NCBI GenBank assembly: GCA_963761255.1
Contig: CAVXGH010000006.1
Span: 263,790-327,789, forward strand
DNA length: 64,000 nucleotides
Origin: an uncultured delta proteobacterium
GTDB lineage: Bacteria; Desulfobacterota; Binatia; Binatales; Binataceae
Direction: 5' to 3'
Below the pieces are notes generated by a model that made no database searches, was not told the DNA's origin, and saw only the letters and a program-made list of their open reading frames with translations. A program made the position numbers and the translations under genes. Below, piece by piece: positions 4,088 to 53,228 of the stretch. Each line of letters starts with the position of its first letter. The first letter of the stretch is position 1.

Positions 4088-5182
4088 TTGGTTAAGCCAC
4101 AAGATTTGGTCCTGCCCGCGGTCGCGGCGATTCAGCCATACGAACCGGGAAAACCGACGGAAGAGCTGGAGCGCGAACTCGGCATCTCCGAGTCGGTGAA
4201 GCTCGCCTCCAATGAGAATCCAATCGGACCATCACCCATGGCGGTACAGGCGATTCGCGCGGCGCTCTCGGAGTTGAATCGCTATCCCGACGGCGGCAGC
4301 TTCACGCTGTGCAACCAGATCGCGGCGCGGCACAAGGTCAAACCCGAGCAGATTTTCATGGGATCGGGCTCCTGCGAGATAATCAACCTACTCGCGTTCC
4401 TGTTCCTGCGACCGGGCCTCAATGCGATTTCATCGGAGCATGCGTTTGCGATTTATCCGCTTGCGACCGCCTCGACCGGCGCGACCTACAAATCCGTGCC
4501 GATGCGCAATGGGTTCGAATTCGACCTCGATGCGATTGCCGGCGCGGTCGACGACAACACGCGCATCATCTATCTCGGCAATCCCAACAATCCGACCGGC
4601 ACGATTTACCGCCGTGCCGAATGGAAACGATTCCTGGCCAAAGTTCCACAGCGCGTCGTTATCGTCGCCGACGAGGCCTACTTCGAATTCGTGCGTGATG
4701 CCGAGTATCCGGACTCGATGCAGGATCATGACGGCACGCGGCTGATCATCACGCTGCGCACGTTTTCGAAAATCTTTGGGTTAGCGGGACTTCGCGTCGG
4801 ATATGGTGTGGCGCGGCCTGACATCGTCACGTTGCTGAACAAGGTCCGGCAGCCATTCAACATCACCACGCTCGCGCAGGTCGCGGTGGCGGCGGGAATG
4901 GATGATATCGATCACGTGAACGCGACCCTGCGAGTCAATCGCGAAGGGATGGAATATCTGGAGCGCGAATTTGCGCGCCTCAAGGTTGGATACATCCCGA
5001 GCCAGGCGAATTTTATTCTCGCCGAGGTCGGCGATGGGCGCGGTGTATTTGACAAGCTGCTGCATCTGGGAGTCATCGTGCGTCCGATGCATGGGTACGG
5101 CTACCCGCGTCACGTGCGCATCAGCGTTGGCTTGCCGGAGGAGAATCGCCGCCTGATCGAGGCGCTCGAAAAAGTTTTGTAA
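4088..5182 (+). CDS. hisC: histidinol-phosphate / aromatic aminotransferase
   Basis: …KLASNENPIGPSP… motif; PLP lysine region (FSKIFGLAGLRVGY). Confidence 0.85.
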   Translation: MVKPQDLVLPAVAAIQPYEPGKPTEELERELGISESVKLASNENPIGPSPMAVQAIRAALSELNRYPDGGSFTLCNQIAARHKVKPEQIFMGSGSCEIINLLAFLFLRPGLNAISSEHAFAIYPLATASTGATYKSVPMRNGFEFDLDAIAGAVDDNTRIIYLGNPNNPTGTIYRRAEWKRFLAKVPQRVVIVADEAYFEFVRDAEYPDSMQDHDGTRLIITLRTFSKIFGLAGLRVGYGVARPDIVTLLNKVRQPFNITTLAQVAVAAGMDDIDHVNATLRVNREGMEYLEREFARLKVGYIPSQANFILAEVGDGRGVFDKLLHLGVIVRPMHGYGYPRHVRISVGLPEENRRLIEALEKVL

Positions 5183-5241
5183 TCGGCAGCCCTTCGCGTC
5201 ATCCTTGCACAAGCTTCCTGCGAAGATAGCTGCTATAATCA

Positions 5242-6105
5242 ATGGCCACGCTTTTCCACCAAATCACCATATGCGGAGTCGGCCTCATCGGAGGCTCACT
5301 CGCCCTCATCGCGCGCGAACAGCATCTGATCGATCGCGCCGTCGGATTGGGACGCACGCTCACCAACCTCGAGGTCGCGCGCAATCGCGGGATGATCGAC
5401 CTCGCGACGCAGGACCCGGTCGAAGCTGCTAAGGGCGCTGACCTGGTGATGCTCGCGGTCCCGATTCGCACCATGCCCGCGGTTTTGGGCGCGATGATTC
5501 CTCACCTGCCGCCACATGCGGTCATCACCGACGTCGGCAGCGTCAAGGGATGGGTGGTGCGCGAGCTCGAGCCGCTGCTGAAGCCCGGCATGTCGCTGGT
5601 CGCGGTGCATCCGATCGCGGGCAAGGAGACCACCGGCGCCGAGGCGGCGGATCGCGAGCTGTTCGTGAATCGGCGCGTGATCGTGACGCCCTCGAAGACG
5701 AGCACGCCCGAGGCTATCGATAAGATCGAGCAGCTATGGCGCGCGACCGGCGCGAAGGTCGAAACGATGGACCCCGACTCGCACGATCGCATCCTCGCGC
5801 GCTCCAGTCATCTGCCGCAGCTCGTCGCGAGTGCGCTGGGTGCGTCGCTCAAGGATGAGCGCATCGCGGGCAAGCTCGCCGCCGAATACGGCGCGGGAGG
5901 TTTGCGCGATACGACCCGGCTGGCGGCATCGTCAACGGAAGTCTGGCGCGATATCTGTTTCACCAATCGCGACGCTATAATCGACGCGCTGAAGACTTTC
6001 GATGCGACCTTCGCGGAGCTTCGAAAGATCCTCGAAGCCGCCGATGAGCAGGCATTTACCGCGCTGTTTGATCGGGGCCGCGCGATGCGGGAGCGGCTGA
6101 AGTGA
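5242..6105 (+). CDS. tyrA: prephenate (or arogenate) dehydrogenase
   Basis: N-terminal Rossmann ICGVGLIGGSLAL; TyrA-family body; located between hisC and cmk. Confidence 0.8.
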   Translation: MATLFHQITICGVGLIGGSLALIAREQHLIDRAVGLGRTLTNLEVARNRGMIDLATQDPVEAAKGADLVMLAVPIRTMPAVLGAMIPHLPPHAVITDVGSVKGWVVRELEPLLKPGMSLVAVHPIAGKETTGAEAADRELFVNRRVIVTPSKTSTPEAIDKIEQLWRATGAKVETMDPDSHDRILARSSHLPQLVASALGASLKDERIAGKLAAEYGAGGLRDTTRLAASSTEVWRDICFTNRDAIIDALKTFDATFAELRKILEAADEQAFTALFDRGRAMRERLK

Positions 6106-34240: not shown

Positions 34241-34362
34241 GGAGGCTTGGGGTCGCCCGCTTCAGCCATTCGTCGATGGCGCCGGTTACGGAATTGGCGC
34301 CACTATTGTAGAGGCGACCGCGCGTGGACTGCCTCGCCTCGCTCGCCTACACTCCGCACCAC

Positions 34363-35685
34363 ATGAAGCCCCGCATCCTCAAGTCCGGAACTTCTGAGTT
34401 CAAGCGCTTCCTCGACGCCATCATCGCGCGGCGCGGTGGCGATGACGATGCGGCGCGCGTCGATGCTGCCGTGAGCGCAATCATCGCGGATGTGCGCAAG
34501 CGCGGCGATGCCGCGCTGATCGAATACACCGAGAAATTCGATCGCGTGAAGCTGACGCCGAAGACCTTGCGGGTCTCATCGAAGGAGCTTCGCGACGCGC
34601 TAGCACAGCTGCCTAAAAAGGATCGCGTCGCGCTCGAACTGGCGGCGCGCCGCATCGCCGCGTTTCATAAGAAGACTATCGAGAAGCCATTCTCCTATAC
34701 CGACAGCCTCGGGATGCGGCTCGGCCAGATGGTGCGCCCGCTCGATCGCGCGGGGATTTATGTGCCGGGCGGAATGGGCGCGTATCCGTCCTCGGTGCTG
34801 ATGAATGCGATTCCCGCGCGCGTCGCCGGAGTTCGCGAAATCGTCATGGTCTCGCCGCCCTCGGCCGAGAGCGACCGCCCCGAGGTGATGGCTGCGGCTG
34901 CGATTGCCGGCGTCGATGAATTCTATCGCGTCGGCGGTGCGCATGGGGTTGCCGCGCTCGCCTACGGAACCTCGAGCATCGCGGCCGTCGACAAGATCGT
35001 CGGGCCCGGAAATGCGTACGTCCAGGCCGCCAAGCGCATGGTCTATGGTGTAGTGGATATCGACAAAATGGCGGGTCCGAGCGAGGTCCTCGTCATTGCC
35101 GATGACAGCGCGCATGCCGCCTGGGTCGCCGCCGACCTCATCGCGCAAGCCGAGCATGGCTCCGGCGACGAATCCGCAGTGATGCTAACTCCTTCGCAAA
35201 AGCTCGCCGATGCGGTGTCGGATGCGCTCGTGGCGGCGCTGGTGGATTTGCCACGCGCCCGCGCCGTCGAAGCCGTCCTCGACAAGCGAGGCGCCCTGGT
35301 GGTCGTGCGGGACCTGGAAGAAGCTTTCGAGCTCGCAAATATCATCGGACCTGAACATCTGGAGCTCGAAATCCGCAATCCTTCGCGATGGCTCCCCAAA
35401 GTTAAAGCAGCAGGTGCGATTTTCCTCGGTCCGATGAGTCCGGCTCCGTTAGGCGATTATCTCGCTGGCCCAAACCATGTTCTACCCACCGGCGGCTCGG
35501 CTCGTTTTGCGTCTCCTCTCGGCGCTTACGATTTTCTCAAGCGCACCAGTATAATCGAGGCGTCGCCCAAGGCGCTGCGCAAGCTCGGTCCGACGGTCGC
35601 GCGGCTGGCGCGGATGGAAGGATTCGAGGGTCATGCGCGCGCGATGGAGACTCGTTACCAACCGAACGGGCGGCGGGGAAAATAA
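34363..35685 (+). CDS. hisD: histidinol dehydrogenase
   Basis: Full-length HisD (…IVGPGNAYVQAAKR…, …AEHGSGDES…). Confidence 0.9.
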   Translation: MKPRILKSGTSEFKRFLDAIIARRGGDDDAARVDAAVSAIIADVRKRGDAALIEYTEKFDRVKLTPKTLRVSSKELRDALAQLPKKDRVALELAARRIAAFHKKTIEKPFSYTDSLGMRLGQMVRPLDRAGIYVPGGMGAYPSSVLMNAIPARVAGVREIVMVSPPSAESDRPEVMAAAAIAGVDEFYRVGGAHGVAALAYGTSSIAAVDKIVGPGNAYVQAAKRMVYGVVDIDKMAGPSEVLVIADDSAHAAWVAADLIAQAEHGSGDESAVMLTPSQKLADAVSDALVAALVDLPRARAVEAVLDKRGALVVVRDLEEAFELANIIGPEHLELEIRNPSRWLPKVKAAGAIFLGPMSPAPLGDYLAGPNHVLPTGGSARFASPLGAYDFLKRTSIIEASPKALRKLGPTVARLARMEGFEGHARAMETRYQPNGRRGK

Positions 35686-36398
35686 TGGCGAGCAAAAAGA
35701 AAACGAAAGTTCGCGCAGTATCGGCACCGGCGCGCCGGCACATCGAGGCCTCTAACGGCGCGCATGATGAAAGCCGCGCCCTGATGCCCACACTCCACAG
35801 CGACAATGGCAAGCGCGTCGCGCACGTCGATCGCAAGACGCGCGAGACCGCGGTGAAGATCGCGCTCAAGCTCGATGGCGGCGGGCGTGGCGAAATCGCT
35901 ACCGGCGTCCCGTTCCTCGATCACATGCTCGATAGTTTCGCGCGCCATGGTTTTTTCGATCTCAAAATCGAGGCGAAGGGCGACCTCCAGATCGACGAGC
36001 ATCACACGGTCGAGGACGTCGGCATCGTGCTCGGCAAGGCGTTCGCGCAGGCGCTCGGCGATCGCTCCGGTATCAAGCGCTACGGCGAGGCGACGGTTCC
36101 GCTCGACGAGGCGCTCTGCTCGGTGGTGGTCGATATCAGCGGGCGCTCGTATCTCGCCTACAACGTGCCGATCACGCAGGAGCGGGTGGGTTCGTTTCAG
36201 ACCGAGCTGGTGCATGATTTCATGAAGGCGCTGAGCGACAACGTCGGGATGAACCTGCACATGAACATGCTGAGCGGGCGCAATCCTCATCACGTGATCG
36301 AGGCGTCATTCAAAGCGCTCGCGCGTGCGATGGATACGGCGACCTCGCTGGAGCCGCGCGTGGCGGGAGTGCTATCGACGAAGGGAACATTGAGCTGA
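35685..36398 (+). CDS. hisB: imidazoleglycerol-phosphate dehydratase (start may be internal Met ~35781)
   Basis: …DRKTRETAVKIALKLDGGG…GVPFLDHMLDSFARHG…VEDVGI…. Confidence 0.85.
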   Translation: MASKKKTKVRAVSAPARRHIEASNGAHDESRALMPTLHSDNGKRVAHVDRKTRETAVKIALKLDGGGRGEIATGVPFLDHMLDSFARHGFFDLKIEAKGDLQIDEHHTVEDVGIVLGKAFAQALGDRSGIKRYGEATVPLDEALCSVVVDISGRSYLAYNVPITQERVGSFQTELVHDFMKALSDNVGMNLHMNMLSGRNPHHVIEASFKALARAMDTATSLEPRVAGVLSTKGTLS

Positions 36399-36411: not shown

Positions 36412-38649
36412 CTATTTTTTCACCTTCGGCGCCTTGCCGGTTACCGAGGCCGCGACGCTCACGACGCCGACGCTCGAGTTGCTGGTGATCTGCACGCTCC
36501 CGGTGTTGGTTCCTACGGTCGAGGGCGTCATCGTGAATGCCAGGGTGCATTTGCCCTTGGGCGCGAGACTCATCCCGGCGGTGCAGGTGCCGCCCGACCG
36601 CGCAAGGTTCGAGCTAATGGCGAAGCTCTTCAGCGTGATCGAAGCGCTACCCTTCGCCGCTCCATTTTCCACCGTGAGTGTCTTCGGTTTGCTCGCCGTG
36701 CCGGTCGTGGTGGTTGCGAATTTCAAGGCGCCGGGACTGGCTTCCAGTTTCGAAGCTACCGGCGGCATCGGCGCGGCGAGGTACGCGGTGACGAATGCGT
36801 CGGCATCGATCGAGCCCCATCCGGTCACCAGGTCATAGCCGGGGCCGGCGGAATATCCCTGCACGGTGACCGCGCCATGCCCGCTGACATTGCTGATGTA
36901 GGTGTTGTCGCCGGAAGTGATGTCATGGAATCCATGCGCCGCCTGCCCCGCGACACCCAATTCCCAGACGATCGGGTTGAGACTGCCGAGCCGCCGGCCG
37001 CCATTTGCAGTTTGCAGAAGGCGCGAATAACCCGCCCACAACGGCGCGGCGAGACTGGTGCCGACGACTAAATAATTGGACTGGGTAGGTTTAGCGACGC
37101 CGGCCACATCGGTATCGGCGAAAATAACGATGTCGGGTTTGCCCGCCAGCGAGGCCACGTCGGGAAGGTCGCGAGAGTTATCATTGCTGGTACCCGCCAC
37201 TCCCAGTTGCCATGAAGGCCTGGTAAAAACGCTGCTGATGCCGCCTCCACTGACCTCGTTCTTGCCGGCCAGGGCGGCGTTACCGTTTTGATTGTTCCAT
37301 GATGACTCGGTCGAATAGCCGGTCGAGAACCCGTTGGTGTAAGTCGGCGAGTCTACTTCAGTGCCGCCGACCGAAGTGGTCAGCGGATTGGCGCCGAGTT
37401 CGTTTACATTGGGCGAACCGGTCTGGCAGGTATCGGCGCCATGATCGCCCGCGGACACGAACACCGACTGCCCCTGGGCTTGTGCCCTGGAAAACAGATT
37501 GCCCAGGGTAGTCGTAAAAAAGGCGTTGGACGCACCGCAGACGTGGTAGCTGAAATTCAACGCGCCGCATTTGTTCTCGGTGGTCATCGCCGTGATCGCG
37601 TCGGTCAGATTCTGTGCGAACGAGAGTTTGTCGGGGTTGGTGACATACAGCGTTATCGGCGCGCCCGGCGCGATCAGATGCGCGGCCTCGATATCGAGAT
37701 AGGCCTCGATGTCGGCGCCGTTGCCGATAACTCCTGGATTAGTCTCCCGGGAAAGATCGATGGTGAGGGCGGGGTTGGTCGCGAAGGAGGTGTACTGCGA
37801 GAAAAGCGCGAAGTAGTCCTTAAGAATGGTGGCCTGCGACGGCTCGGTAAAAATGTTGGTGTTGGCGAAGATCCCGATACAGTCCCCGCCGTTGGCGCCG
37901 GTGTTGCCGCCCTCCAGCAGCGGGGTTTCGTCATAGAAGGTGTAAAAATCCGGCGGACCGAAAGTAAGGCCCGAGCCACCGATTGTCTCGAGGCTGAAAT
38001 CGGGGCCCGACCCCGCGGCGTGGCCATCGCGCTTCATGACCGGGAGTTTGCGAAGACTCGGTTTCAGCCTGGCAGTCGCATCGTCGGGCTCGAGGCTGCC
38101 CAGGTTCTGCATCCCGAGGATATCGCCGATTAAGCCGGCGAACTGCGCGGGGATTTCAGGTTCCATCAGATTGGCGAATTTGCCGTTGCCAAAGTCCTCG
38201 AGCTGAGTGTTGAACGTCCGCTCGACCGATACGGTATCGGTACTGAAGCGAAGGTAGCCGTCCTCGCGCGAGCCGCCGAGGATCTGGAAGCCACTCGCAG
38301 TCAGCCAATCCTGCACCGCCGAAAAATCGCTCGCGCTCACTCCGAACCGGCGCGTGAAGTCATCCGAAGTGATCCATTGATGGTATTGCGATGAAGCCGG
38401 ATCGATTTGCGCCGCGATTAGCTGATCGAGCTGCGCTCGGTTGCGGATCGCGAATCGAATGTCGAGGGTCAGGGTCTTGGCGGGATCGAGATGCCTAAGG
38501 ACGGCCATCGTCGCCGCGGCGGGCGGGACCGTCCCGCGCATCTTCACCACCTGCGCCATCGCCACGGACGGGATGACAGACATCAGGATGAAAATCGCGA
38601 ACGATTGAGCTCGACGTTTGGCAGACTCAAACGGAACGACCGGCGAATG
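36412..38649 (-). CDS. secreted S53-family serine peptidase (sedolisin/kumamolisin-like) with pro-peptide activation domain and C-terminal Ig-like domain
   Basis: Signal peptide, pro-kumamolisin activation domain, catalytic Ser motif VVGTSLAAPLWAGY; C-terminal β-sandwich tail shared with other proteins in the cluster. Confidence 0.8.
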   Translation of the reverse strand, partial: HSPVVPFESAKRRAQSFAIFILMSVIPSVAMAQVVKMRGTVPPAAATMAVLRHLDPAKTLTLDIRFAIRNRAQLDQLIAAQIDPASSQYHQWITSDDFTRRFGVSASDFSAVQDWLTASGFQILGGSREDGYLRFSTDTVSVERTFNTQLEDFGNGKFANLMEPEIPAQFAGLIGDILGMQNLGSLEPDDATARLKPSLRKLPVMKRDGHAAGSGPDFSLETIGGSGLTFGPPDFYTFYDETPLLEGGNTGANGGDCIGIFANTNIFTEPSQATILKDYFALFSQYTSFATNPALTIDLSRETNPGVIGNGADIEAYLDIEAAHLIAPGAPITLYVTNPDKLSFAQNLTDAITAMTTENKCGALNFSYHVCGASNAFFTTTLGNLFSRAQAQGQSVFVSAGDHGADTCQTGSPNVNELGANPLTTSVGGTEVDSPTYTNGFSTGYSTESSWNNQNGNAALAGKNEVSGGGISSVFTRPSWQLGVAGTSNDNSRDLPDVASLAGKPDIVIFADTDVAGVAKPTQSNYLVVGTSLAAPLWAGYSRLLQTANGGRRLGSLNPIVWELGVAGQAAHGFHDITSGDNTYISNVSGHGAVTVQGYSAGPGYDLVTGWGSIDADAFVTAYLAAPMPPVASKLEASPGALKFATTTTGTASKPKTLTVENGAAKGSASITLKSFAISSNLARSGGTCTAGMSLAPKGKCTLAFTMTPSTVGTNTGSVQITSNSSVGVVSVAASVTGKAPKVKK

Positions 38650-38995
38650 CTGGTCCATGCGGGTTCCCCCCAAAAGCACCGGTATAAGAAATCGTGCCCG
38701 GAGCTGAATTGACCGCGCCCGAAATCGCGATTCATTCAAGCACATGAGATAAAGGCTTCGCCAGCGAGACTCTCGGTGGTCAGATTCAACTGCCCCGCGG
38801 AGATCCGAGGGCGTCACCGTTCCAATCTCACTCACAGATTCGAATCGGCGATCCGCGGTCGCGAGGAGAGGAATTCCAGTCTGAAGCATGGTCGCGACGA
38901 GTTCTATGGGAATAAGGTGCGGCCGCGGGCGCGCAGGCATCTGCCGCAGGCCCAACCCCTTCCCTTTAGAGAAGCGCCGCAGCAAGATTGGGATC

Positions 38996-39730
38996 TTGTT
39001 TGAAAAATTCACGGTAATTCCTTCGATCGACCTCAAGAATGGCGAGGTTGTGCGGTTGCTGCGCGGCGCGATGGATAAGGCCACCGTTTATGGATCCGAT
39101 CCGGCGGCGGTAGCGCGCGATTTCGAAGGTCAGGGCGCCGAAATTATCCATGTCGTTGACCTCGACGGCGCCATCGCGGGCGAGCCGAAGAACCTCGAGG
39201 CGATCCGCGCGATTCGTGCCGCCGTGCGATGCGAACTCGATGTGAGCGGCGGGCTGCGCACGATGGCTTCGATTCGCGAGATCATCAAGGCCGGCGCGAC
39301 GCGAGTTTCGATCGGCTCAGCCGCCTTCCTCAATCCGCAGTTGCTCATCGATGCGTGCGCGGAGTTGCCGGGAAAGATTTTCGGCTCCCTCGATGCGCGC
39401 GACGGCAAGCTCGCCATCAAGGGATGGGTCGAGACCAGCGCGCTGACGGTTGCCGATGCGGCGCGGCGGTTTCGAGAAGCAGGTGTCGCCGCCGCGATTG
39501 TCACCGACATCTCGCGCGATGGGACCGAGGCCGGCCTCAACATTGAGACTATTCGCGCGATTGCGCGCAGCGTCGCCCTGCCGATGATCGCGTCAGGCGG
39601 CGTTGCGAGGCTCGAGGACATTTCCAACTTGAAGGCGCTCTTCTCCGCGGGTGTCGTGGGCGTCATCACCGGCCGCGCGTTGTACGAAGGCCGCTTCACC
39701 GTGGCGCAAGCGATCGCCGCGTCGCGCTAG
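38996..39730 (+). CDS. hisA: 1-(5-phosphoribosyl)-5-[(5-phosphoribosylamino)methylideneamino]imidazole-4-carboxamide isomerase
   Basis: …VIPSIDLKNGEVVRL…VVDLDGA…; probable TTG start. Confidence 0.8.
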   Translation: MFEKFTVIPSIDLKNGEVVRLLRGAMDKATVYGSDPAAVARDFEGQGAEIIHVVDLDGAIAGEPKNLEAIRAIRAAVRCELDVSGGLRTMASIREIIKAGATRVSIGSAAFLNPQLLIDACAELPGKIFGSLDARDGKLAIKGWVETSALTVADAARRFREAGVAAAIVTDISRDGTEAGLNIETIRAIARSVALPMIASGGVARLEDISNLKALFSAGVVGVITGRALYEGRFTVAQAIAASR

Positions 39731-40342: not shown

Positions 40343-42433
40343 TTACCACGCCGCCCATGGCACTCGCGAAAAAATGTCCGGGTACCTGAGAGCTCCGGGG
40401 ATGGCAAACAGGGCTGCGACGACGACGAGAATCCCGCAAGCTATCAGAGCCGGCCGTCTGACTCTGCTCGTGTCTTCGATGGTCGCGAGCGCGAACCACG
40501 GCAGGAAAGGGACCCAATAGCGGGGACCATAGCAGAGTCCCGGCCCGGTGCCGGAGCAACTAAGAAGTACCAGGAACAAAACGAGGGGGAGCGCCATTTG
40601 ACGGAGCAGCTTTGCCTCGGGAAAATCGGAGCGGAACGCGCGTGCGATGGCGATGAAGGCGATAATTGCCCACGGAACAAAGTATAGCAGTGCGTGGCCA
40701 GGCTCGAAGAAAGTGTCATAGATCGATTTGAGGCTGGCGCCGCGCAGCCAACTCGAGTTTCCGGAAATCACCAGGGTTTTTGCGAGCCAGTAGTTGAAGA
40801 CCAGCACTGGCGCGCCGCACAGTGCCATCACGATGCCCAGCTTGATCGCGTTTTGCCGGCGTCCCGCGACGAACTCGTTGATCATGAATCCGATTCCGAC
40901 CACTGCAAGTGGCGGCTTGAGAATCGCTGCGAAGGCGACGCCGAGGCCTGCCACTATTGGTCTATCTGTGGTCAGCGCCCAAAGCGCCACTATCAGGCCT
41001 AGACCGATGGTGGCCTCGGGAAAGAACGATCGCGAATAGGCCAGCCACGAACTCGCTCCCATGAGAAGGGCAACCGCCAGCAGCGCTTTGATGCGGCTCA
41101 TTCCCACCCCGCGTCCTGCCACGTAGGTCATTAGAGCTCCGAGCCACGAAATAATTGCCAGCACGACAGCGGTGTAGGACTCGGCATCGCCGAAGGCGGG
41201 ACGAAAAGGAGCGACCGCGAGCGCCATTAACATGGAAAATTCCGGTGGATGAGCCGAGACCTCGTAGACGTCGCCGGAGGGAACAAACTCCGGGTTGCAG
41301 GCACTTACGGAGTCAGGAGAATCGATTGAAGCGAAAGCATGATGGCCGGTACGCTGGTTGACTATTAGCGTATGACGATCGAGCGGTACATTCCGGAATC
41401 GAACTCCGGCGTCCACTCCGCCGGCAGCAACCCGATCGTAGTCGTCCTGCAACTCGAAGTCGTGGTCGAACAACAGGCTATTTATCAGCAGGATATAATG
41501 CGGCTCGTCACTGCGCGCGGCTCGCGGCGTGACGAGGGAAAATCCCGCGCCGGGGGTCCATTCGATTCGCGTCAGCACAAGGATTCCCCCCAGCAGCAGG
41601 GCAAACAGAATCGCAACTCCGCGCGCGGATAAGGAGTTTGTCGAAACCTTCCCGGCCGCCATGGAAGTGGTCGGGCCATCGGCGAACCGATAGTAGATGA
41701 GTCCGAGCACGCTCAGTACGAGAATCAACCAGACAGTCGTCCAGTTGATCGATGCGGCGGAAAAATGTGCGGCCTTCGCGAATTCGAATTGCCGCGCGCC
41801 CTCTGGAGGGGACGCAATCCGCGTGAAGGTGAGGTTGCGGCACGAGACCCTGGTGTGGAGATTCGGCGAGGTGAGACCACATTGAACCTCGACCGGGTCG
41901 TCGCCGAAGATGCGAACGTAAATATCGTGACGTGCCCAGTCCTCGCCACGCCAAAACGCCGAGGCGGAGTCGTGTCTTTGTTTGACGGCGAGGAATGCGC
42001 CGCCCATCCGTGAGCCCTGGGTGCGCAACTCGGCGCTAAGATCGTACCAGCCCGGCGCCACCGACACGGTTTGGGTCCATGCCGCGTCATCCCCCGGCGC
42101 ATTGACGATGCTCAATTCGCCCGGCGCATCTTTTGAGCGTACCCAATGGAAGCTGTCGCAGCCGGAGCGACGCGATGGATACCAGTCGTTGGGCATCGCG
42201 ATACCGCCGCTCAGGTCAGAGTTGAGGAGGAGGTTGGTTGCCGCGGAGGCCGAAGGGATAAAGACCATCAGCATCAGCAAAATCGCCGTCCCGACGCCTG
42301 GGAATCGGCTGACGATGCTTCGATCCCGGCGCGGCAGCCATTTGCAGCTAACAGATGCGACGATATCCCCCATTATGTTCATTTCGCACGTCTTCGCCCA
42401 TTCGAACCTATCTATGATGACTGCTGATGACAA
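40343..42433 (-). CDS. GT-C-fold membrane glycosyltransferase-like protein (PMT/ArnT-like; DE-type loop-1 motif) with N-terminal extracytoplasmic β-sandwich domain; paralogue of 59795..61177
   Basis: Multi-TM C-terminal half, …RIEWTPGAGF…SDEPHYILLINSLLFDHD…; ~55% identity to 59795..61177 over ~400 aa. Confidence 0.55.
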   Translation of the reverse strand: MSSAVIIDRFEWAKTCEMNIMGDIVASVSCKWLPRRDRSIVSRFPGVGTAILLMLMVFIPSASAATNLLLNSDLSGGIAMPNDWYPSRRSGCDSFHWVRSKDAPGELSIVNAPGDDAAWTQTVSVAPGWYDLSAELRTQGSRMGGAFLAVKQRHDSASAFWRGEDWARHDIYVRIFGDDPVEVQCGLTSPNLHTRVSCRNLTFTRIASPPEGARQFEFAKAAHFSAASINWTTVWLILVLSVLGLIYYRFADGPTTSMAAGKVSTNSLSARGVAILFALLLGGILVLTRIEWTPGAGFSLVTPRAARSDEPHYILLINSLLFDHDFELQDDYDRVAAGGVDAGVRFRNVPLDRHTLIVNQRTGHHAFASIDSPDSVSACNPEFVPSGDVYEVSAHPPEFSMLMALAVAPFRPAFGDAESYTAVVLAIISWLGALMTYVAGRGVGMSRIKALLAVALLMGASSWLAYSRSFFPEATIGLGLIVALWALTTDRPIVAGLGVAFAAILKPPLAVVGIGFMINEFVAGRRQNAIKLGIVMALCGAPVLVFNYWLAKTLVISGNSSWLRGASLKSIYDTFFEPGHALLYFVPWAIIAFIAIARAFRSDFPEAKLLRQMALPLVLFLVLLSCSGTGPGLCYGPRYWVPFLPWFALATIEDTSRVRRPALIACGILVVVAALFAIPGALRYPDIFSRVPWAAW

Positions 42434-42550
42434 ACCGAGCGTGCGTCAGTTTGTCTCGACGGTGGTATGTATGCTATGAAAAGCCCGCTAGCGCCTGCGC
42501 AACTTTGGGGAGCTATCTAAAAAGGCGCAACAAAAGGGAAGGAGACTTGA

Positions 42551-43318
42551 ATGAAGGTTAAAGCACTTGTGGGGGCGTTTGGAGCTTTCCTGATCGCGCT
42601 CGGATTGAGTTCGGCCGCGCGGGCAATGTCGCCGGACGTACCCGGACAGGTTTTGTACACCTACTACGAGACCACCGAAAACTTTACGTTCTGCGACAGC
42701 ACGACCGCCGATACTGACGGGTGCGATGTTGGCGGCAATGGGGACAATATCATTCGCCTAATCAATCCCAATGGTGCGGCGAACGCCAATCTTGCGGGCG
42801 CGCAGACCAATACGATTTGCGCCATGATCTATGTCTTCGATGATGACGAGGAAATGGGCGAGTGCTGCGGTTGCCCCTTGTCTTCCGCGCAACTGGCGAC
42901 TTTCTCAGTCGAGCACAACCTGACCTCCAACTGGGGTCTCTCGGGTGGGGCTGAAAGCGGGGATCATGCCAATGGTGCTATCGCGATCATATCCGCGGAT
43001 CAGAACGCGAGTATTTCGTTTCAGCCCGGTTTGAGCAACGGACAAGGGTGCTCAAACAGCCAGAGCGGCGCCTGCAATTTAGGTTGCGATCCCACCAACA
43101 ATCCGGGATATCCAGTCGCGGTCGCGGGCGGGGATAATCTCCTCGGCAGCATCACCCACAACCAGGTAATTTTCCCGATCGATGGCCAAATCACCGAAAC
43201 CCAGTTGTTCGATGATTGCCACGGCGAGGACATCAATCTCGTCTATCTGCAGACTCAATGCGGCGCGTTGGTCGGCAACGGCACGCATGGCGGAATCTGC
43301 AACTGCCCGGTTGAATAG
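42551..43318 (+). CDS. secreted Cys-rich hypothetical protein
   Basis: Signal peptide MKVKALVGAFGAFLIALGLSSAARA; 12 Cys incl. ECCGCP, CNLGCDP; no family recognised. Confidence 0.5.
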   Translation: MKVKALVGAFGAFLIALGLSSAARAMSPDVPGQVLYTYYETTENFTFCDSTTADTDGCDVGGNGDNIIRLINPNGAANANLAGAQTNTICAMIYVFDDDEEMGECCGCPLSSAQLATFSVEHNLTSNWGLSGGAESGDHANGAIAIISADQNASISFQPGLSNGQGCSNSQSGACNLGCDPTNNPGYPVAVAGGDNLLGSITHNQVIFPIDGQITETQLFDDCHGEDINLVYLQTQCGALVGNGTHGGICNCPVE

Positions 43319-43354
43319 ACTGAACCGCGCATCGAATTACTGATCTGATAAAGA

Positions 43355-43388
43355 CGCCGCCGGACATCCTCCGGCGGCGTTTTTGTTT
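43355..43388 (+). terminator. rho-independent terminator (GCCGCCGG-loop-CCGGCGGC + TTTTTGTTT), also the insertion site of the group II intron
   Basis: 8-bp GC stem + T-run directly after the stop of 42551..43318. Confidence 0.65.
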
Positions 43389-45262
43389 GTGCGCCCAGCA
43401 TGGCGCGTGACTTGTGAGGTGAAAGTCCTCTGTGCGAGCAGGCCGCGTCGAGCACTAGCGAAGCGCAAGGGCGTCATCGTGAGATGGGGTCTGGAGGAAG
43501 CGCGGAGCAAAGCCGCGAGCCGACGAACAGGAACCGGATACAAGGGCGAGGTGGCTCAGGGCGAGCGGGCAAATGACCGCGAAGCTCTATCGGCCAAGGA
43601 GTCATCGCGTAGATCCGGCGGTTTGTGCGGCGAAGGTCACGGCGTCTTACCTGGGGAGATCTCGCTTCACGCCTGAAAGGGCGACGCGCAGGAGCGCGGA
43701 GCGAGAAGTCAGCCGAGGCCGTAGTAGTCAGCGGGACACGGCAGAGGCCTCGATGTCCGCGCTGATGAAGGGCCGAACGGAAGGGAGAGCGAAGCCGCTG
43801 TGAGTCCGAAAGACGCCAGGCGCCAGAAGCCCGAGCAATTGGGGCTGCCGCTGGAAGGTAGAGGTGAAGCCTCGAGGGTCCAGCGCAGCGGCGAAGCGTC
43901 GACGATGGCGAACAGAGAGGAGCGCTCGGGAAGCGACCGCCTGATGGAAGCGGTGGTTGCGCGCGGCAATGTCAGGGCGGCGTTGACGCGGGTACGTGAG
44001 AACCGGGGCAGCCCCGGAGTCGAGGGGATGACGGTGGAAGAACTGCCGCAGCACCTGATGGAGCACTGGCAGGAAGTCCGCGAGCAACTACTCGCCGGAA
44101 CTTACCAGCCCAAAGCGGTGCTGCGACGGGAAATCCCGAAAGCGAGCGGCGGAATGCGAGAGCTCGGCATTCCGTGCGTGCTCGACCGGCTGATCCAACA
44201 GGCGATACTGCAGGTGCTGCAGCCGCGATTCGACCCCAGCTTCTCGGAGCACAGTTACGGCTTCCGGCCGGGGCGCAGCGCGCACGACGCGGTGTTAGCG
44301 GCGCAGCGCTATGTGCAGGAAGGACGCCACTGGGTGGTGGACGTGGACCTGGAGAAGTTCTTCGACCGGGTCAACCACGACGTGCTGATGGGAAGACTAG
44401 CGCGGCGAATCGATGACTCGCGGCTCCTGCGGCTAATCCGCCGCTATCTCAACGCCGGCCTGATGGCCGACGGAGTGGTGATGGAACGCACTGAGGGAAC
44501 GCCGCAGGGAGGACCACTGTCGCCACTGCTGGCGAATCTCCTGCTTGACGAAGTGGACAAGGAGCTGGAGAAACGCGGGCACACGTTCGTGCGCTATGCC
44601 GACGACTGCAACGTCTATGTGCGGTCGCGGCGCGCGGGAGAACGAGTGATGGCGGCGCTGGAGCGAATGTACGCCAAGCTCCGACTTAAAGTGAATCGCG
44701 AGAAGAGCAAGGTGGACCTCGCGCACAAGCGCAGCCTCTTGAGCTACAGCTTCTGGTACGCCAGGGGCGGCGCGGTGGCATGCCGGGTCGCACCCAAGGC
44801 GCTGCGCGCGCTCAAGCAGCGCGTGCGGCGGATAACCAGACGCAGCGGCGGACGGAGCATGAGAAGCGTAGTCGCGGAGCTGAGGAAGTATCTGCCGGGA
44901 TGGAAGCAATACTTCCAACTAGCGGACACGCCGAAGACCTTCGCTGACTACGACAAATGGCTCCGCCACCGGTTGCGAGCGCTGCAACTCAAACAGTGGA
45001 AGCGCGGCTCGAAGATCTATACCGCGATGCGCCGCCTCGGACTGCCGGACGCGATTGCGGCGCAAGCCGCACGGGTTAACCGACGCTGGTGGCATCGGGC
45101 CGCCATGTCGGTCCACGCCGGACTCACTGCCCGCTACTACGACCGACTTGGAGTACCCAGACTTGCCGATTAACCTCAACCTTCCGAACCGCCGGATGCG
45201 GACCCGCATGTCCGGTGGTGTGGCAGGGGAGTAGCGCTGCGGCGCTACCCCCTATGCCGATT
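43389..45262 (+). mobile_element. group II intron, bacterial class C-like (ORF in domain IV), inserted immediately downstream of an intrinsic terminator
   Basis: 5' end GUGCGCC (GUGYG consensus) right after the terminator T-run. ORF-containing DIV. Domain V-like hairpin CCGCCGGAUGCGG…CCGCAUGUCCGGUGG (CGC catalytic triad variant typical of class C). Domain VI hairpin with bulged A (CCCCCUAUGCC) ~8 nt before the 3' end. Confidence 0.7.
43905..45173 (+). CDS. group II intron-encoded reverse transcriptase/maturase
   Basis: RT motifs incl. FVRYADDCNVYV (YADD), maturase/X domain (…RKYLPGWKQYF…). Confidence 0.85.
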   Translation: MANREERSGSDRLMEAVVARGNVRAALTRVRENRGSPGVEGMTVEELPQHLMEHWQEVREQLLAGTYQPKAVLRREIPKASGGMRELGIPCVLDRLIQQAILQVLQPRFDPSFSEHSYGFRPGRSAHDAVLAAQRYVQEGRHWVVDVDLEKFFDRVNHDVLMGRLARRIDDSRLLRLIRRYLNAGLMADGVVMERTEGTPQGGPLSPLLANLLLDEVDKELEKRGHTFVRYADDCNVYVRSRRAGERVMAALERMYAKLRLKVNREKSKVDLAHKRSLLSYSFWYARGGAVACRVAPKALRALKQRVRRITRRSGGRSMRSVVAELRKYLPGWKQYFQLADTPKTFADYDKWLRHRLRALQLKQWKRGSKIYTAMRRLGLPDAIAAQAARVNRRWWHRAAMSVHAGLTARYYDRLGVPRLAD

Positions 45263-45296
45263 CGATGACTCAGCCCGCCGGCCGCACTCGGGATTT

Positions 45297-47957
45297 TTAT
45301 AAGGCGATCATCGAGAATGGGCGGGAGGGTTCGGCGCCGTCGCTGGTCAGTCTGGCGATGGCGCTCAATAGGGTCTGCTTCTTGATCGGCTTGCTCACAT
45401 GGAGATTGCAACCCGCCTCCCGCGCGCGCTGAACATCCTCGTCGAGCGCCGATGCGGTCAGGGCGATGATCGGCACCTGAGGCAGTCCCTGCGCGCGTTC
45501 CCATTCACGAATCGCGCGGGTGGCCGCGAAGCCGTCGAGCAGCGGCATCTGGATGTCCATCAGGATGACGTCGTAGCGATTGTTCTTGACGATATCGATC
45601 ACCCGCTGGCCGTTCTCTGCCTCATCGATCTTGAACGAGGTTTTTTGCAGGAAGGCCTTGACCACCAGCCGATTGTCGGGGGAATCGTCGGCCAGCAGGA
45701 TGCGCAGCGCCCTGGAATTTTCGGCGGGAGGATGGTTGACGACGGGAATCAGGCGGCCGCTGCCGAGCGGCTTGAATTCGCGGGCGCCGGCGATCTCGGC
45801 AATCGTGGTGAAAAGATCGTGGCGCCGGATCGGCTTGAAAATGTAATGGCGCAAGCCGACTTCCTGCATCCGCGGCCGGTCGGCGCTCAATGCGGTCGAA
45901 TTGACCATTAGGATCGCAGGTGGAAGCCGCCAGGCGTTTCGACTCAAGCGCCGCAACATCTCGAGGCCATCCATCTGTGGCATGCGCTGGTCGACCAGCA
46001 TCAGATCGAAGGGACTTGCGAGGTCGTTGGCCTTGCGAATGAGCTCGAGGCCTTCCGCCGCGGACCCCGACTGGGCAATCCGCGCGCCACGCAGAGTGAG
46101 CATCTCGGCCAGAATCGCGCGGCTGGTCTGATTGTCATCGGTGATGAGAATCCGCATGCCGCCAAGATCCGGCATCGCGGGCAGTGCCGCATCAGCCCGG
46201 GTCTGGTCGAGGTCGAAGGCAGCGGTGAAGAAAAATGTGCTGCCTTTGCCGGGCGCGCTCTCGGCCCACACGCGGCCGCCCATCAGTCCTACCAGCCGCT
46301 CGACGATCGTGAGCCCGAGTCCGCTGCCACCATATTTTCGGGTGGTGGAAGAATCGGCCTGGGTGAAGGCCGAGAAGATATTGGCCAGCTTGTCCGCGCC
46401 GATGCCGATGCCGGTATCGGAGACGCTGAACCTCAGGTGCGCCGGGTTTTCCGCGGCCGGATCGCGCTCGACCCGAATCGCGACTTCACCCGCATCGGTA
46501 AACTTGATCGCGTTGCCGACCAGGTTGGTGACCACTTGTCGCAAGCGCAGCGGATCTCCGACCAGCCGGGTCGGAACCTCGGGCGCGAATCGAAGCGTGA
46601 GCTCCAATTGCTTTTCGTCGGCGCGCACGGCGAGGGTCTCGATGGTTTTTTCGACGACCTCCGCCAGTTCAAAGGCCGTGGCCTCGAGGCTCAGGCGTCC
46701 GCTTTCCATCCGCGCCAGATCGAGCACGCTATTGATGAGCTCGAGCAGGGCGTTGCCATTGCTGACCAGGGTTCCGACGTAGCGGCTCTGATCGGAATTG
46801 AGCGGAGTTTCCGAAAGCAGATCGGCGGTGCCGAGGATGGCGTTCATCGGGGTGCGAATCTCATGCGACATGCTGGAAAGGAATTCCGACTTGGCCCTCG
46901 AGGCTGCCAGCGCGGCCGCACTCGCGGCCTCGAGCTGACGCTGAGTTTCCTTCAGCTTCGAGACGTCACGCGCGATGAAAAGGGCGCATTGCCGGCCACC
47001 GAGTTCGAGGACCACCGACGAAACCAGCGCGGGCGAGGGCATTCCGTAAGCGCCGCGGGTCATGATTTCTTCGTTGCGAACCTTCAAATCGCTCACCACT
47101 CGCTCAATCAGGCGCTCGGCGCTGGCGTCATCAAACCAGATATTGAGTTCCTGCCAGTGTTTGCCGATCGCCTCTTCGCGGGTGAAGCCGGTCGCGAGCA
47201 AAAATTCCTCGTTCACGTTGATGTAGCGCTGAGTGCGAAGATCGATGATGCAGAGCGGATCGAGGATCGAGTCGAGCGCCTTGCGCAGCGCGGCTTCGTT
47301 GTCCGCCAGGCGCAGATTCTGTTGCGACACCTGATTGCGATTCTGCTCGCCCAGCGACGCCGCGAAATGTCCCACCGCGCCGGCGGTTCCGAATCCCACC
47401 CAATGAAAGAAGGACAGCGTGTCCTGTTTGCTCAGCAGCGCTACCGCGCCAAGGCCGAGAACGGTCGCGGCCGAAAGAGAATCCTGCCAGCGAGTTTCCC
47501 ACGGCAGGAGCGCTCCGGCGCCGAGGACCACCATGAAGCCGCTGATAAAGTAGAACTCCGCGTTTTCATTGAGCAGCGCGAGAGCAGCCACACTGGCGAG
47601 CAGGCAAATGCAACCGAGCAGCGTGAGCTGGCGCCATCGGGCCAGCATCCACCGATGGAAGGTCAGTCGAACAAACAGCAGACCGATACACAAGTTGAAG
47701 GAGTAAAAGAGCGTCGCGAGGGCCGCCGTTTTCGTGTGCGCCAGCAAGGCCGGGACGGCGAGTGCGACCTGTGACAAGGCGACCAGGGTGGCGGCCACCC
47801 GCAACATCACCAGGGCGCGGCCATCCGCGCTCAGCTCGAGCTGCGAGGGCAGCAGCGATTCCCATCGAGTGGATGTCGATGTTCTACCCATATCCCCCTG
47901 AAACGGCCGCCGATCCGGATGCGGAGCCGCGATCGAAGCACCTCTCCCCAAAGGCAT
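45297..47957 (-). CDS. hybrid sensor histidine kinase/response regulator (TM region, PAS, HisKA, HATPase_c, two REC domains)
   Basis: H-box LSSMSHEIRTPMNAI, G-boxes, two receiver domains (…ILITDDN…, …ILLADDSPDN…). Confidence 0.85.
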   Translation of the reverse strand: MPLGRGASIAAPHPDRRPFQGDMGRTSTSTRWESLLPSQLELSADGRALVMLRVAATLVALSQVALAVPALLAHTKTAALATLFYSFNLCIGLLFVRLTFHRWMLARWRQLTLLGCICLLASVAALALLNENAEFYFISGFMVVLGAGALLPWETRWQDSLSAATVLGLGAVALLSKQDTLSFFHWVGFGTAGAVGHFAASLGEQNRNQVSQQNLRLADNEAALRKALDSILDPLCIIDLRTQRYINVNEEFLLATGFTREEAIGKHWQELNIWFDDASAERLIERVVSDLKVRNEEIMTRGAYGMPSPALVSSVVLELGGRQCALFIARDVSKLKETQRQLEAASAAALAASRAKSEFLSSMSHEIRTPMNAILGTADLLSETPLNSDQSRYVGTLVSNGNALLELINSVLDLARMESGRLSLEATAFELAEVVEKTIETLAVRADEKQLELTLRFAPEVPTRLVGDPLRLRQVVTNLVGNAIKFTDAGEVAIRVERDPAAENPAHLRFSVSDTGIGIGADKLANIFSAFTQADSSTTRKYGGSGLGLTIVERLVGLMGGRVWAESAPGKGSTFFFTAAFDLDQTRADAALPAMPDLGGMRILITDDNQTSRAILAEMLTLRGARIAQSGSAAEGLELIRKANDLASPFDLMLVDQRMPQMDGLEMLRRLSRNAWRLPPAILMVNSTALSADRPRMQEVGLRHYIFKPIRRHDLFTTIAEIAGAREFKPLGSGRLIPVVNHPPAENSRALRILLADDSPDNRLVVKAFLQKTSFKIDEAENGQRVIDIVKNNRYDVILMDIQMPLLDGFAATRAIREWERAQGLPQVPIIALTASALDEDVQRAREAGCNLHVSKPIKKQTLLSAIARLTSDGAEPSRPFSMIAL

Positions 47958-49947: not shown

Positions 49948-52900
49948 TCACTTCCCGGATCCTTTCAGCGTTACCACGGTGCTGCCGGTGCTCGGGGCGA
50001 TGACCCCAATCGCCAGGGCGGCCGACGGGTTCACACCTTTGACCGCTGGGATGAAAGTAACTGATATGGCGATGGTCGCGCCCGGCGACAGATCGAAGTG
50101 ACCGGAATTAACGTTGTAGGGAGCGATGTTAACCGGCGCCCAATCGCCACTCAGGAGTCCCTTGCCGATATTCTTGATAGTCAGGCTGGTCGGGAAAGTC
50201 GTTCCGGTCGGCGCAGTGATCGTAAAAGCGCTCGGTACTGAAAGCTTTCCGGCCAGGCCGACGCCAGTCAGCGCGATGCCGATCGAAGGCCGCGTCGCAT
50301 CATTGGTGTTGATGATCGCCGCCGCAGTGTCACTGGAAGATCCGGCGCAAAGGTCATCGATTCGGTTAGTGATTGGCCCGGGGCTATGTCGAAAGAGCCC
50401 TGGCTGACCTGGAAGACCTGACTTCGGGTTGCTGGGCTGGTCATCACACCCAGGTTTCCAATCAGGTCACCCTTACCCGAATTCTTGATGCTGAAGTTCT
50501 TGCTGGTCGATTGCCCAATGGCCACCGAGCCCAGGTTCAAGCTTGCCGGAGCTACGATTTTCGCGCCACTCGGGAGCGGAGTCGGCGTGGGTGTAGCGGT
50601 CTGAGTCGCCGTGGTAGTGGCCGTCGTGGTTGCGGTCGCGGTAGGAGTTGCGGTGATGGTTGCGGTCGAAGTCGCCGTGATAGTCGGAGTTGGAGGCGCC
50701 GTCGGGGTGCTGGTAGGCGTCGCGGTGCTGGTCGCGGTCGCAGTCGCAGTCGGTGTAGGCGTGGGCGCCGCGATGAGCAGCATGGCCTGAGCTGTCACAA
50801 CTTCGGTGCTGCCCGAGAGCGTGGCAAATACCGGGTAGACGGATGACTGAGTGTGGGCGGAAGGAGCCACTCCGTCGGCGAACGCTGCCGCAAACCCCTC
50901 CTTCGCGGAACTCATGTTGAAGCGCTGAGTCAGCAGACTCGACAAGGCCAGAGTCGGCGCATTCGGCGCCTGGGCGCCATAGAAGAATACCTGCAGGTCA
51001 TGGTTGTTGTTCGGGCTTAATGACGGAGCGGAGACACTAACAGGACTAGTTCCGGACGCCGTCGCCCCCGAGGTGTTCTCGATCGGCAACGAAGTTGCTC
51101 CTCTCCATGCGCCCATCACACCAGTGGCAAAGTTGGAGGCTATCGCCCAGGTATAGGAAGCGGGTTCACTCGCACCCGCGACCTTGTAATACAGCCATGA
51201 GGTCGCCTGGTTGCTGCTACCACTGCCGACCGAATCATTGCGAATGCTGGACCAGCCGCTCGGAAAGGTCGGGATATCCGAGCCGGTACCATCGTGGATG
51301 ATGATCTGTGCGATGAGCGTATCGCCTTGCCGAACTCCCGCCGGCAGGGAGACCGGGATGGTTGTCACCGCGGTACTGGAATCGCTCAGCGGGCCCTGGC
51401 CGACGAAACTGATGGTGGTAGTAGGGGTTGCGGTAGCGGTTGGCGTAGCCACCGTGAGAAATGCCGTCTCGAAGGTATTCACATCGGGAGAGCCCCAACC
51501 GGTGGTCAAATCGTAACCCACCGCCGCACTGTATCCGGCGACTTCATTGAAGCCGTTGCTTCCGGTGGTCACGTCACGCAACCCGGATTTGGACGAATTT
51601 GCGAGTGCACCGAGCGCATAGATCCGCGCATTCATGGCTCCCAGCCGACCAGCCGAGATCTGAGCGATCAGCTTCGAGATGCCTGCCCACATCGGGGTGG
51701 CGATGCTGGTTCCCCCGATGCCGCCCATCTCGGCGGGGGATCCCGCCAGATCGTCAACCCACCAGAAACCGGGGGTCGTATTGCTGGCCGCCGCTGACAC
51801 GTCAGGGATGTCGCGCAAACCATCATTCGGGGTGCCGGCGTTTTGGTACGGGGGTTTGGCGAACAGCATGCTTTTGCCGCCGCCGGTTGCGCCTGCGCCA
51901 TTGTTCCAGGCGGCTTCCGGGACATTCCCGACATCGTTGCCCTGGGAATCATAGTTAGGGGAGAACTGGGTTCCACCGACCGCGGTAACATTGGGATTGG
52001 CGGCTAACTCGCTGACATTTTGGGTCGTAGCGGTCACGCAGGTGTTACCGTTTAAGGAGGTCAGACCAGCAGAACCCCAGTCTCCCGTCGCGGCGAAGAC
52101 CGTCTGCCCCTGCATGGCCGCTTGCGTCAGTGCGTTGCCGATGGTGGTGGTGTAAAACGACGACGTGCCGTTGCAGAAGAAATAAGTGAAGCTGATGGTG
52201 CCGCAGGCATTGTCATTGATGGATTTCACGAGCGCGTCGGTCAAAGGATCAATCACTGAGGACGCCTGGTTGCCGAGATACACGTTGATCGGAGCTCCAG
52301 GTGCGGCGACATGGGCCCACTCGATGTCAACCAGGGCCTCGGTTTCATCGCTATTCGTTACAGGACTGGTGGTATCGGCGGGTACCTTAGTCACACTGGC
52401 GGCGGGCAGCGAGAAGCTCGTGTCAAAGGTACTTACCGCGGCGGCTAGGAAGTCGGAGTCCTGGATGATTCCGATGCAGTCGCCGCCGCTCCCATCGATC
52501 GCGCCATTGACCGGAGGCGTTTCATTGTAGAACGTCCAGAGATCCTGAGGGCCGAAAAACACGGTGCTCAGCGCCGGACTGCTGCTGGCTGGCGCTGAGG
52601 TGGCTCGCGTTGATTTGGCGAAACTCGGAAGCTTCACCGTGGCAGCGAGACTGACTGGTCGCGCGGTTACCGGGGTCCAATGACGCAGGTTATCGAGCCC
52701 GTCAAGCGACCCAATGACATCGGTGAAGCGGGCGGGAATTTGCGGAGCCGACGTGTTCGAGAACCTCGCTCCGTCGGCTGATGCGGCTATGGTGGTGGCG
52801 AAAGTCTGCTCCGCTTTCGAGACGGTCGCCACCGCGCTGATCTCGCGATTCGAGGAATGAGTGACATGAAAGCCGTGGCCGGAAAGCCATTGCGATACGG

Positions 52901-53228
52901 CCTGCGTCTCGGCTTGGGTCCGGCCAAATCGCGCGTTGAACTGCGTGGGCGTCAACCAGCGATGATACATCGGAGACGCGGGATTTTGCAGATCGGCCTG
53001 GAGTTTCGCCAGGGCCTCGCGATTGCGAAGCCGAAAGGCCACATGGACTGTTAGTGAGCGTTGGCCAGATGCGCGCGACGACAGAGCCGCAGCCTCCAGC
53101 GGACGATTGTCGCCAAGCGCAACCGTCTGTGCCAGCGCCACACCCGCCGCGAAGGTACCCATCACCGCCAAAAACGAAATGGCAATTACGAGGTGCAGTG
53201 CGCCGCGGCTAACTCCAAACTTTTCCAT
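49948..53228 (-). CDS. secreted S53-family serine peptidase (sedolisin-like), multidomain: pro-domain, catalytic domain, uncharacterised ~200-aa domain, (TP)n linker, two Ig-like C-terminal domains; single-base frame change at ~50335 (C-run)
   Basis: Pro-kumamolisin domain (…YHRWLTPTQFNARFG…), Ser motif IGGTSIATPMWAG. Tail in another frame (…SDTAAAIINTNDATRPSIGIALTG…VVTLKGSGK*) is homologous to the C-terminus of the 1213-aa neighbour. Confidence 0.8.

Follow-up and report, generated by a model that had tools for sequence, protein, structure and literature searches.

A group II intron between two convergent genes

What separates the gene for a Cys-rich protein from the convergent histidine kinase gene in a 64-kb stretch of contig CAVXGH010000006.1, assembled from an uncultured bacterium? 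A preliminary description of this stretch (hereafter the window) had proposed a class-C-like group II intron lying directly after a transcription terminator. The ranking of the encoded protein against known structures, the class C features of the RNA and the targeting of hairpins all agree with that proposal. We assign 43389–45261 to a full-length bacterial class C (group IIC) intron, a retroelement that is probably active, with a probability of about 96%. All coordinates are positions in the window, on the + strand unless marked otherwise, and junction positions are counted from the splice sites.

The intron is 1873 nt long and was delimited by Rfam matches together with the limits of similarity among its copies. 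Its 5′ end, GUGCG (43389–43393), directly follows the T-run TTTTTGTTT (43380–43388), just as had been pointed out in the preliminary description, and its last bases, ...GAU, end at 45261. With the splice site marked by a slash, the 5′ junction reads …GACGCCGCCGGACAUCCUCCGGCGGCGUUUUUGUUU/GUGCGCCC… and the 3′ junction …CCCCCUAUGCCGAU/UCGAUG…, and the predicted joined-exon (empty-site) sequence is …GGCGGCGTTTTTGTTT/TCGATGAC….

Further copies were found by a protein-guided scan of genome contigs and by an exact-protein look-up. Comparison of the window with 11 other copies showed similarity beginning no more than 15 nt 5′ of the 5′ junction, in a common T-run, and stopping no more than 9 nt beyond the 3′ junction. 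Because similarity begins and stops within a few bases of the junctions, the mobile unit is 43389–45261. The exception to this junction-limited similarity is L085, a second assembly of the window locus that matches it over 4 kb at 98.55% identity. The span first proposed, 43355–45262, does contain the element, but its start takes in the 5′-exon hairpin and its end lies 1 base into the 3′ exon. The GC content of the intron is 64.7%, vs. 60.3% for the window, a modest difference that says nothing about origin.

The intron-encoded protein

Domain IV of the intron contains an open reading frame (ORF) for a reverse transcriptase (RT)/maturase of 457 aa (43800–45173, GTG start), with a YADD motif at 44595–44606. 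The early estimate of a YADD-containing RT/maturase ORF in a unit of ~1.87 kb was thus accurate. The protein matches Pfam RVT_1 (E = 5.7e-40) and GIIM (E = 1.2e-17), as well as the NCBIfam equivalog TIGR04416 (group_II_RT_mat; 409 bits vs. a cutoff of 300). It is laid out as an N-terminal extension of ~45 aa, RT0–7, an X/thumb region and a D region. No endonuclease domain was found, RVT_1 and GIIM being the only Pfam matches, and the alignment to the endonuclease-less GsI-IIC RT extends to residue 454 of 457.

Among all PDB chains, the best match was the GsI-IIC RT, with 440 bits over residues 48–454 and 51% identity. The gut-bacterial group II maturases in entries 7uim, 5hhj and 5hhl, which we take to be class IIC proteins (Pyle lab), scored 273–316 bits, and the IIB entry 6me0 and the IIA protein LtrA ~121 bits each. 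Judged by this similarity ranking, in a database that holds only IIA, IIB and IIC representatives, the protein is much closer to class C proteins of solved structure than to those of IIA or IIB. It therefore groups with class C, in line with the preliminary description. Retron, DRT and G2L-type domesticated RTs were considered separately and rejected, since the ORF sits within a complete ribozyme and the corresponding NCBIfam models scored far below cutoffs.

The GTG at 43800 is likely to be the start codon. In homologues at 53–70% identity the frame is open for a median of 80 codons upstream of the M49 equivalent, many of these proteins have ATG exactly where the window has GTG, and a conserved purine-rich GGAGAG lies ~10 nt upstream of the start. 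A start at this GTG gives the ~45-aa extension ahead of RT0 (43800–43940), which bears the motif …LPLEGRGEA…RSGEA…ERSG…, conserved in more than 50 homologues, and which may overlap the protein-binding site of domain IVa.

The ribozyme

The ribozyme amounts to ~500 nt outside the ORF. Rfam model RF02001 (group-II-D1D4-3) matched 43473–43645 with 127.6 bits (E = 6.8e-26 over the whole window), which excludes a chance match to a group II ribozyme. RF01998 (group-II-D1D4-1) matched 43682–43773 with 42.9 bits, and RF00029, which describes domains V and VI (DV and DVI), matched 45187–45261 with 38.9 bits (E = 1.4e-5) at relaxed thresholds.

Domain I (43394–43655) is closed by the helix CCCAG/CUGGG and is defined by the RF02001 match and RNAalifold. 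Domains II (43656–43710) and III (43717–43774), separated by J2/3 (43711–43716), are both supported by the RF01998 match and by RNAalifold pairs with covariation. Across the 5′ 410 nt, 64 of the 98 predicted pairs carry compensatory changes (RNAalifold, 29 sequences). The 11-nt epsilon-prime bulge, GUCUGGAGGAA (43489–43499), is unpaired in the RF02001 structure line and ends in AGGAA (43495–43499); aligned relatives have either AGGAA or AAGAA. Exon-binding site 1 (EBS1), AAA at 43571–43573, is presented by a hairpin of domain I in its loop, GCAAAUGA, and its partner, intron-binding site 1 (IBS1), is UUU at 43386–43388. On the 3′ side, the putative IBS3 is T45262, the first base of the 3′ exon; T occupies +1 in all 11 close copies with a 3′ junction.

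DV (45189–45218) is 30 nt long and consists of a 9-bp basal helix, an AU bulge (45208–45209), a 3-bp distal helix and the loop GACC, leaving a 4-nt gap in the Rfam alignment relative to the 34-nt consensus. Its catalytic triad, CGC (45190–45192), is invariant in 34 relatives. DVI (45221–45259), covered by the RF00029 match, has bulged U45253 and A45254. Of these, A45254 is the putative branch point and stands 7 nt away from the 3′ splice site. The DVI bulge, CUAU, is likewise invariant in the 34-sequence set. Both the CGC triad and the bulged A had already been recognized in the preliminary description, and the covariance-model check that it proposed shows that DV and DVI model well, with covariation, and sets the boundaries at 43389–45261. 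Compensatory double changes were found at 12 of 28 DV/DVI pairs (3 in DV and 9 in DVI) in 34 distinct relatives, and the retention of pairing through such changes indicates that the ribozyme is under structural selection.

Compared with those of IIA and IIB, introns of the IIC group carry CGC instead of AGC as the triad and have a DV distal stem that is 2 bp shorter; AGGAA in the epsilon-prime bulge is unique to them, and they use a 3–4 bp IBS1–EBS1 pairing with a stem-loop in place of IBS2 (PMC1702495). All of these hallmarks are present in the window intron, as is the ribozyme size that sets the group apart (~500 nt outside the ORF); the distal stem of its 30-nt DV, a 3-bp helix, is 2 bp below the length seen in IIA and IIB. 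IIC RNA structure and class C proteins are matched one-to-one (PMC4424553, PMC7306698). A IIA or IIB intron was considered and rejected: the triad is CGC and not AGC, DV has 30 and not 34 nt, the 5′ exon has 3 conserved bases and not the partners of a 6-bp EBS1 plus EBS2, and the targets are many and unrelated, unlike those of site-specific homing.

Copies and mobility

The search for additional copies, recommended at the outset, found the intron at 11 other sites elsewhere. At least 9 contigs have a gene for exactly this 457-aa protein, and 6 of them are long contigs of one ENA sample (ERZ25039548). Intron copies 99.8–100% identical to that of the window occur at 8 other sites, with an identical protein in all; L082 and L088 are identical to it over all 1873 nt, and most others differ by a single 1-nt indel. 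Three more sites carry copies at 95–96% identity (96% for L001 and L003, 94.8% for L002). Together with the window, these make 12 independent sites (the window, L081–L084, L086–L089 and L001–L003). The flanks differ at all copies, which are therefore true separate insertions, and assembly duplication of one locus is an unlikely source of the near-identical copies.

The near-identical copies, the intact ORF and the intact catalytic RNA suggest that mobility is probably recent and ongoing, and the identical copies at 9 sites, including the window, apparently represent an ongoing burst of one IIC lineage. From the intact catalytic elements and the near-identical copies at many sites we also infer self-splicing and retromobility. 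The preliminary description had called the element recent or active. This is probably correct given the 99.8–100% identical copies at 8 other sites, but the position between convergent genes, from which it had been argued, is no evidence for it.

Several observations weigh against a complete and active IIC intron. The RF00029 score of 38.9 is 1.1 bits below the gathering threshold of 40, a shortfall caused by the 4-nt deletion in the DV distal stem, which is itself a class C hallmark. EBS3, the partner in the IIB-type IBS3–EBS3 pairing expected of IIC introns, was not located: a column-by-column scan of domain I gave no column clearly covarying with the +1 base, the best being intron position 74 (A43462), which matched at 32 of 44 sites with no convincing covariation. 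The identical copies of sample ERZ25039548 sit on separate contigs, from one genome or several. Within the 64-kb window, blastn and tblastn found no second copy. Exact scans of a metagenome collection with a hairpin 36-mer and the predicted exon–exon junction 24-mer did not find an empty site, and an exact look-up of the upstream 255-aa protein returned only the occupied locus.

The single copy in the window and the missing empty site would fit a class C intron that is a dead relic, an old insertion that has lost both splicing and movement, and so would the presence of the same insertion in the second assembly of the locus (L085) and the report that class C introns are rarely transcribed (PMC7306698). 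We consider such a relic unlikely. The ORF is intact, has YADD and aligns over its full length with an active RT, none of the catalytic RNA elements is damaged, and decay would have brought divergence, whereas the copies at 8 other sites remain 99.8–100% identical and encode an identical protein. A full-length and probably active intron accounts for these observations better.

Some copies differ in host label or in structure. L001 and L003 belong to a metagenome-assembled genome (MAG) labelled delta proteobacterium, and L002 (CAVXIA010000012.1, 2595–4463; 94.8% identical) to a MAG labelled Conexibacteraceae; these label differences reflect horizontal spread, mis-binning or mislabelling. The L002 reading frame for the protein is interrupted a short way upstream of the M49 equivalent. 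Locus L062 holds an ORF-less IIC-like element of ~670 nt (750–1421), with 5′ domains at 751–1099 and DV/DVI at 1330–1421. A full-length protein ORF follows separately ~1.5 kb downstream, and the element may derive from an intron that lost its ORF by deletion. Most relatives are on ~2-kb contigs, and the intron, as a repeat, explains breaks in short-read assemblies.

Insertion site and target rule

The 5′ exon ends in a terminator hairpin and T-run. The GC core of the hairpin (43355–43379) is formed by the arms CGCCGCCGGA and TCCGGCGGCG with the loop CAUCC, and pairing between an A-tract and a T-tract is able to lengthen the stem. The hairpin folds with −31.8 kcal/mol (z = −7.2), and none of 200 shuffled sequences was equally stable. 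It lies 37 nt 3′ of the stop codon of the co-oriented 255-aa gene. The T-run TTTTTGTTT (43380–43388) follows, its last 3 bases, TTT (43386–43388), being IBS1, and the intron starts at the end of this run, 9 nt past the hairpin stem. Spacings of 3–11 nt between stem and insertion have been reported for B.h.I1 of Bacillus halodurans (PMC1702495).

A consensus terminator scan of 42400–46000 returned no sites, despite the stable hairpin and T-run revealed by direct folding. The probable cause is pairing between the upstream A-tract and the T-run, after which no T-tail remains free beyond the maximal stem, and we treat the result as a miss of the tool's definition and not as evidence against a terminator.

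A different GC hairpin is found upstream at each of the 12 independent sites. All of these hairpins are perfect or nearly perfect GC stems, and most copies have T-rich tails. TTT at −3 to −1, complementary to EBS1 AAA, is invariant (12/12), and with T at +1 it makes up the only fixed exon bases across sites. There is no conserved IBS2, as positions −4 to −14 have no fixed base across the 12 sites of this near-identical intron. All 8 loci with gene calls have a co-oriented gene ending upstream, at a distance of 57–71 nt in 7 of them and 284 nt in L087.

The same rule was seen in the wider family. A structure at least as strong as −20 kcal/mol is present within the 45 nt upstream at 82% of 74 distinct sites, vs. 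4.5% of 1480 control 45-mers from the same loci. EBS1 and IBS1 are paired at all three positions at 65 of 75 family sites, while position −4 pairs at just 51% of sites. Distinct EBS1/IBS1 combinations are fully paired in 23 of 31 cases, compared with 3.2 ± 1.6 (maximum 10) in 5000 shuffles. The two elements change together in relatives, giving CAC/GUG, CAA/UUG, AAC/GUU, AUG/CAU, ACG/CGU, UUC/GAA and CGC/GCG. The family alignment is thus an unusually clean natural demonstration of IIC targeting, by a hairpin and a 3-nt IBS1 that covaries with EBS1.

A sister lineage occurs in Longimicrobiales MAGs (L008–L025, L043, L047 and L054), with 5′ GUGGG, EBS1 CAC and IBS1 GUG, and is present in at least 4 or 5 copies in single MAGs. 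A few sites of the Longimicrobiales lineage have no strong upstream hairpin, such as L023 (−4.2 kcal/mol).

The target rule also bears on whether the intron could be of another endonuclease-less class (D, E, F or undescribed) that happens to lie after a terminator. The PDB ranking leaves some room for this, as it contains no class D, E or F representatives. We nevertheless find it very improbable: the triad is CGC, DV has 30 nt, the bulge carries AGGAA, EBS1 pairs over 3 bp and IBS2 is lacking; the protein is 51% identical to the GsI-IIC RT along its full length; IIC RNA and class C proteins match one-to-one (PMC7306698, PMC4424553); and hairpin targeting holds across 74 family sites. Least credible of all is membership of the IIC-attC sub-lineage with an integron attC as the upstream hairpin: inverted repeats of attC are indeed targeted by some class C introns (PMC4424553), but here a perfect GC stem and then a T-run stand 37 nt beyond the stop of a co-oriented gene, similar hairpins precede the other copies, which follow unrelated housekeeping-type genes, and the neighbours scanned show no sign of an integrase or a cassette array. 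The IIC intron inserted after a terminator therefore remains our assignment.

Genomic neighbourhood

The upstream gene that forms the 5′ exon (42551–43318) is co-oriented with the intron and encodes the 255-aa Cys-rich protein, which has an N-terminal hydrophobic segment (read by eye) and no Pfam match. The convergent gene downstream (45297–47957, − strand) encodes a hybrid histidine kinase with PAS, HisKA, HATPase_c and two receiver domains (Pfam). Other neighbours within ~10 kb are hisD and hisB (34324–36398), an AAA_28 protein, sedolisin-like proteases and membrane proteins. Two large ORFs of 890 and 986 aa (36412–39084 and 50268–53228, both − strand) have a pro-kumamolisin activation domain, which suggests that they are sedolisin-type secreted proteases. 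No integrase, transposase or other mobile-element genes were found among the neighbours scanned within ~10 kb. A tRNA-linked island was considered and rejected, as the 64-kb window contains no tRNA genes.

The preliminary description had also regarded the intron as a marker of accessory DNA. We find no support for this among neighbours that comprise hisD, hisB, protease and kinase genes and no mobile-element genes. Half of the 863 bacterial group II introns in a published survey were class C, and these were largely indifferent to the function of their neighbourhood (PMC7306698). Other copies of the window intron adjoin glutaredoxin/BolA genes and an aminoacyl-tRNA synthetase gene. The notion that introns of this kind flag accessory DNA is thereby corrected. 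The locus is useful mainly for annotation: with exact intron boundaries, the RT ORF should be labelled an intron-encoded protein and not a stand-alone or defence RT. Directly 3′ of another identical copy, L086 has an IS481-type transposase gene (4629–5797; HTH and rve domains).

Minus-strand folding gave no significant hairpin in the interval from the stop codon of the kinase gene (45297) to the intron (z = +0.74). On that strand the 5′-exon hairpin folds too (z = −3.97), with UCUUUAU after it, and before the insertion it probably served both convergent genes as a bidirectional terminator. The intron now stands between this hairpin and the kinase gene, whose transcripts would have to traverse 1.87 kb of antisense sequence to reach it. 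Read-through from the kinase gene could in principle produce antisense RNA over the RT gene and the ribozyme and so couple host expression to silencing or control of the retroelement, an idea that we consider doubtful. A convergent downstream gene is present at 5 of the 7 identical-copy sites with a downstream call, 1 of the 5 being the window locus.

In the other assembly of this locus, the 886-aa kinase gene is called as three genes (L085, 4498–6711). The two versions differ by 13 gaps over 4 kb, a pattern that suggests frameshifts introduced into one of them by errors of long-read assembly.

Proposed mechanism

The anatomy, class and exact boundaries of the intron, its EBS1–IBS1 pairing, its target-site rule and its many near-identical copies were observed here; the splicing chemistry, the recognition of the hairpin by the particle and priming at the replication fork are proposed by analogy with the family (PMC1702495, PMC4424553). 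Precursor RNA would arise by read-through of the upstream gene across the terminator, or from an internal promoter. The 457-aa RT/maturase would be translated from domain IV, bind the intron and promote splicing, with the 5′ exon held by EBS1–IBS1 pairing (AAA, 43571–43573, with UUU, 43386–43388) and by recognition of the terminator stem-loop, the latter substituting for the missing EBS2–IBS2 pairing. The excised RNA–protein particle would then reverse-splice into DNA that offers a hairpin, a few further bases and TTT, with T on the other side of the insertion point. As the protein has no endonuclease, cDNA synthesis would presumably be primed by the nascent strand at a replication fork.

Comparison with known group IIC introns

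The best match of solved structure belongs to GsI-IIC of Geobacillus stearothermophilus, whose RT (TGIRT-III, PDB 6AR1) shares the layout of the window protein, with RT, thumb/X and D regions and no endonuclease. GsI-IIC, an intron of group IIC, is present in multiple copies in its genome, and its RT is known to have no endonuclease domain (PMC3683930). The GsI-IIC RT differs in that the ~45-aa N-terminal extension and the LPLEGRGEA motif are absent. The hosts differ as well, GsI-IIC residing in a thermophilic Firmicute and the window intron in an uncultured bacterium of ~60% GC; the likeness is drawn from the proteins. The window RT is a mesophilic, GC-rich relative of the TGIRT enzyme and is of possible interest to enzyme prospectors. 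The Pyle-lab maturases (7UIM, 5HHJ and 5HHL), presumably from Eubacterium rectale and Roseburia intestinalis IIC introns, form a second tier of matches, further off than GsI-IIC and also without the N-terminal extension.

The crystallised O.i.I1 ribozyme of Oceanobacillus iheyensis has the same minimal IIC RNA architecture as the window intron. The crystallised O.i.I1 construct is not known to contain a protein-coding ORF; set against it, the ORF of the window intron is intact and its DVI is complete, with a bulged A. B.h.I1, the reference for terminator targeting, has in common with the window intron a stem-loop in place of IBS2, a 3–4 bp IBS1–EBS1 pairing, the CGC triad, a DV stem shorter by 2 bp and the AGGAA bulge, as compared from its published description (PMC1702495). 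The spacing of 9 nt in the window falls inside the B.h.I1 range of 3–11 nt. EBS1/IBS1 of the window intron is AAA/UUU. The window intron leaves the current understanding of group II introns unchanged and adds one more example, real and complete, to a very well-known and abundant kind.

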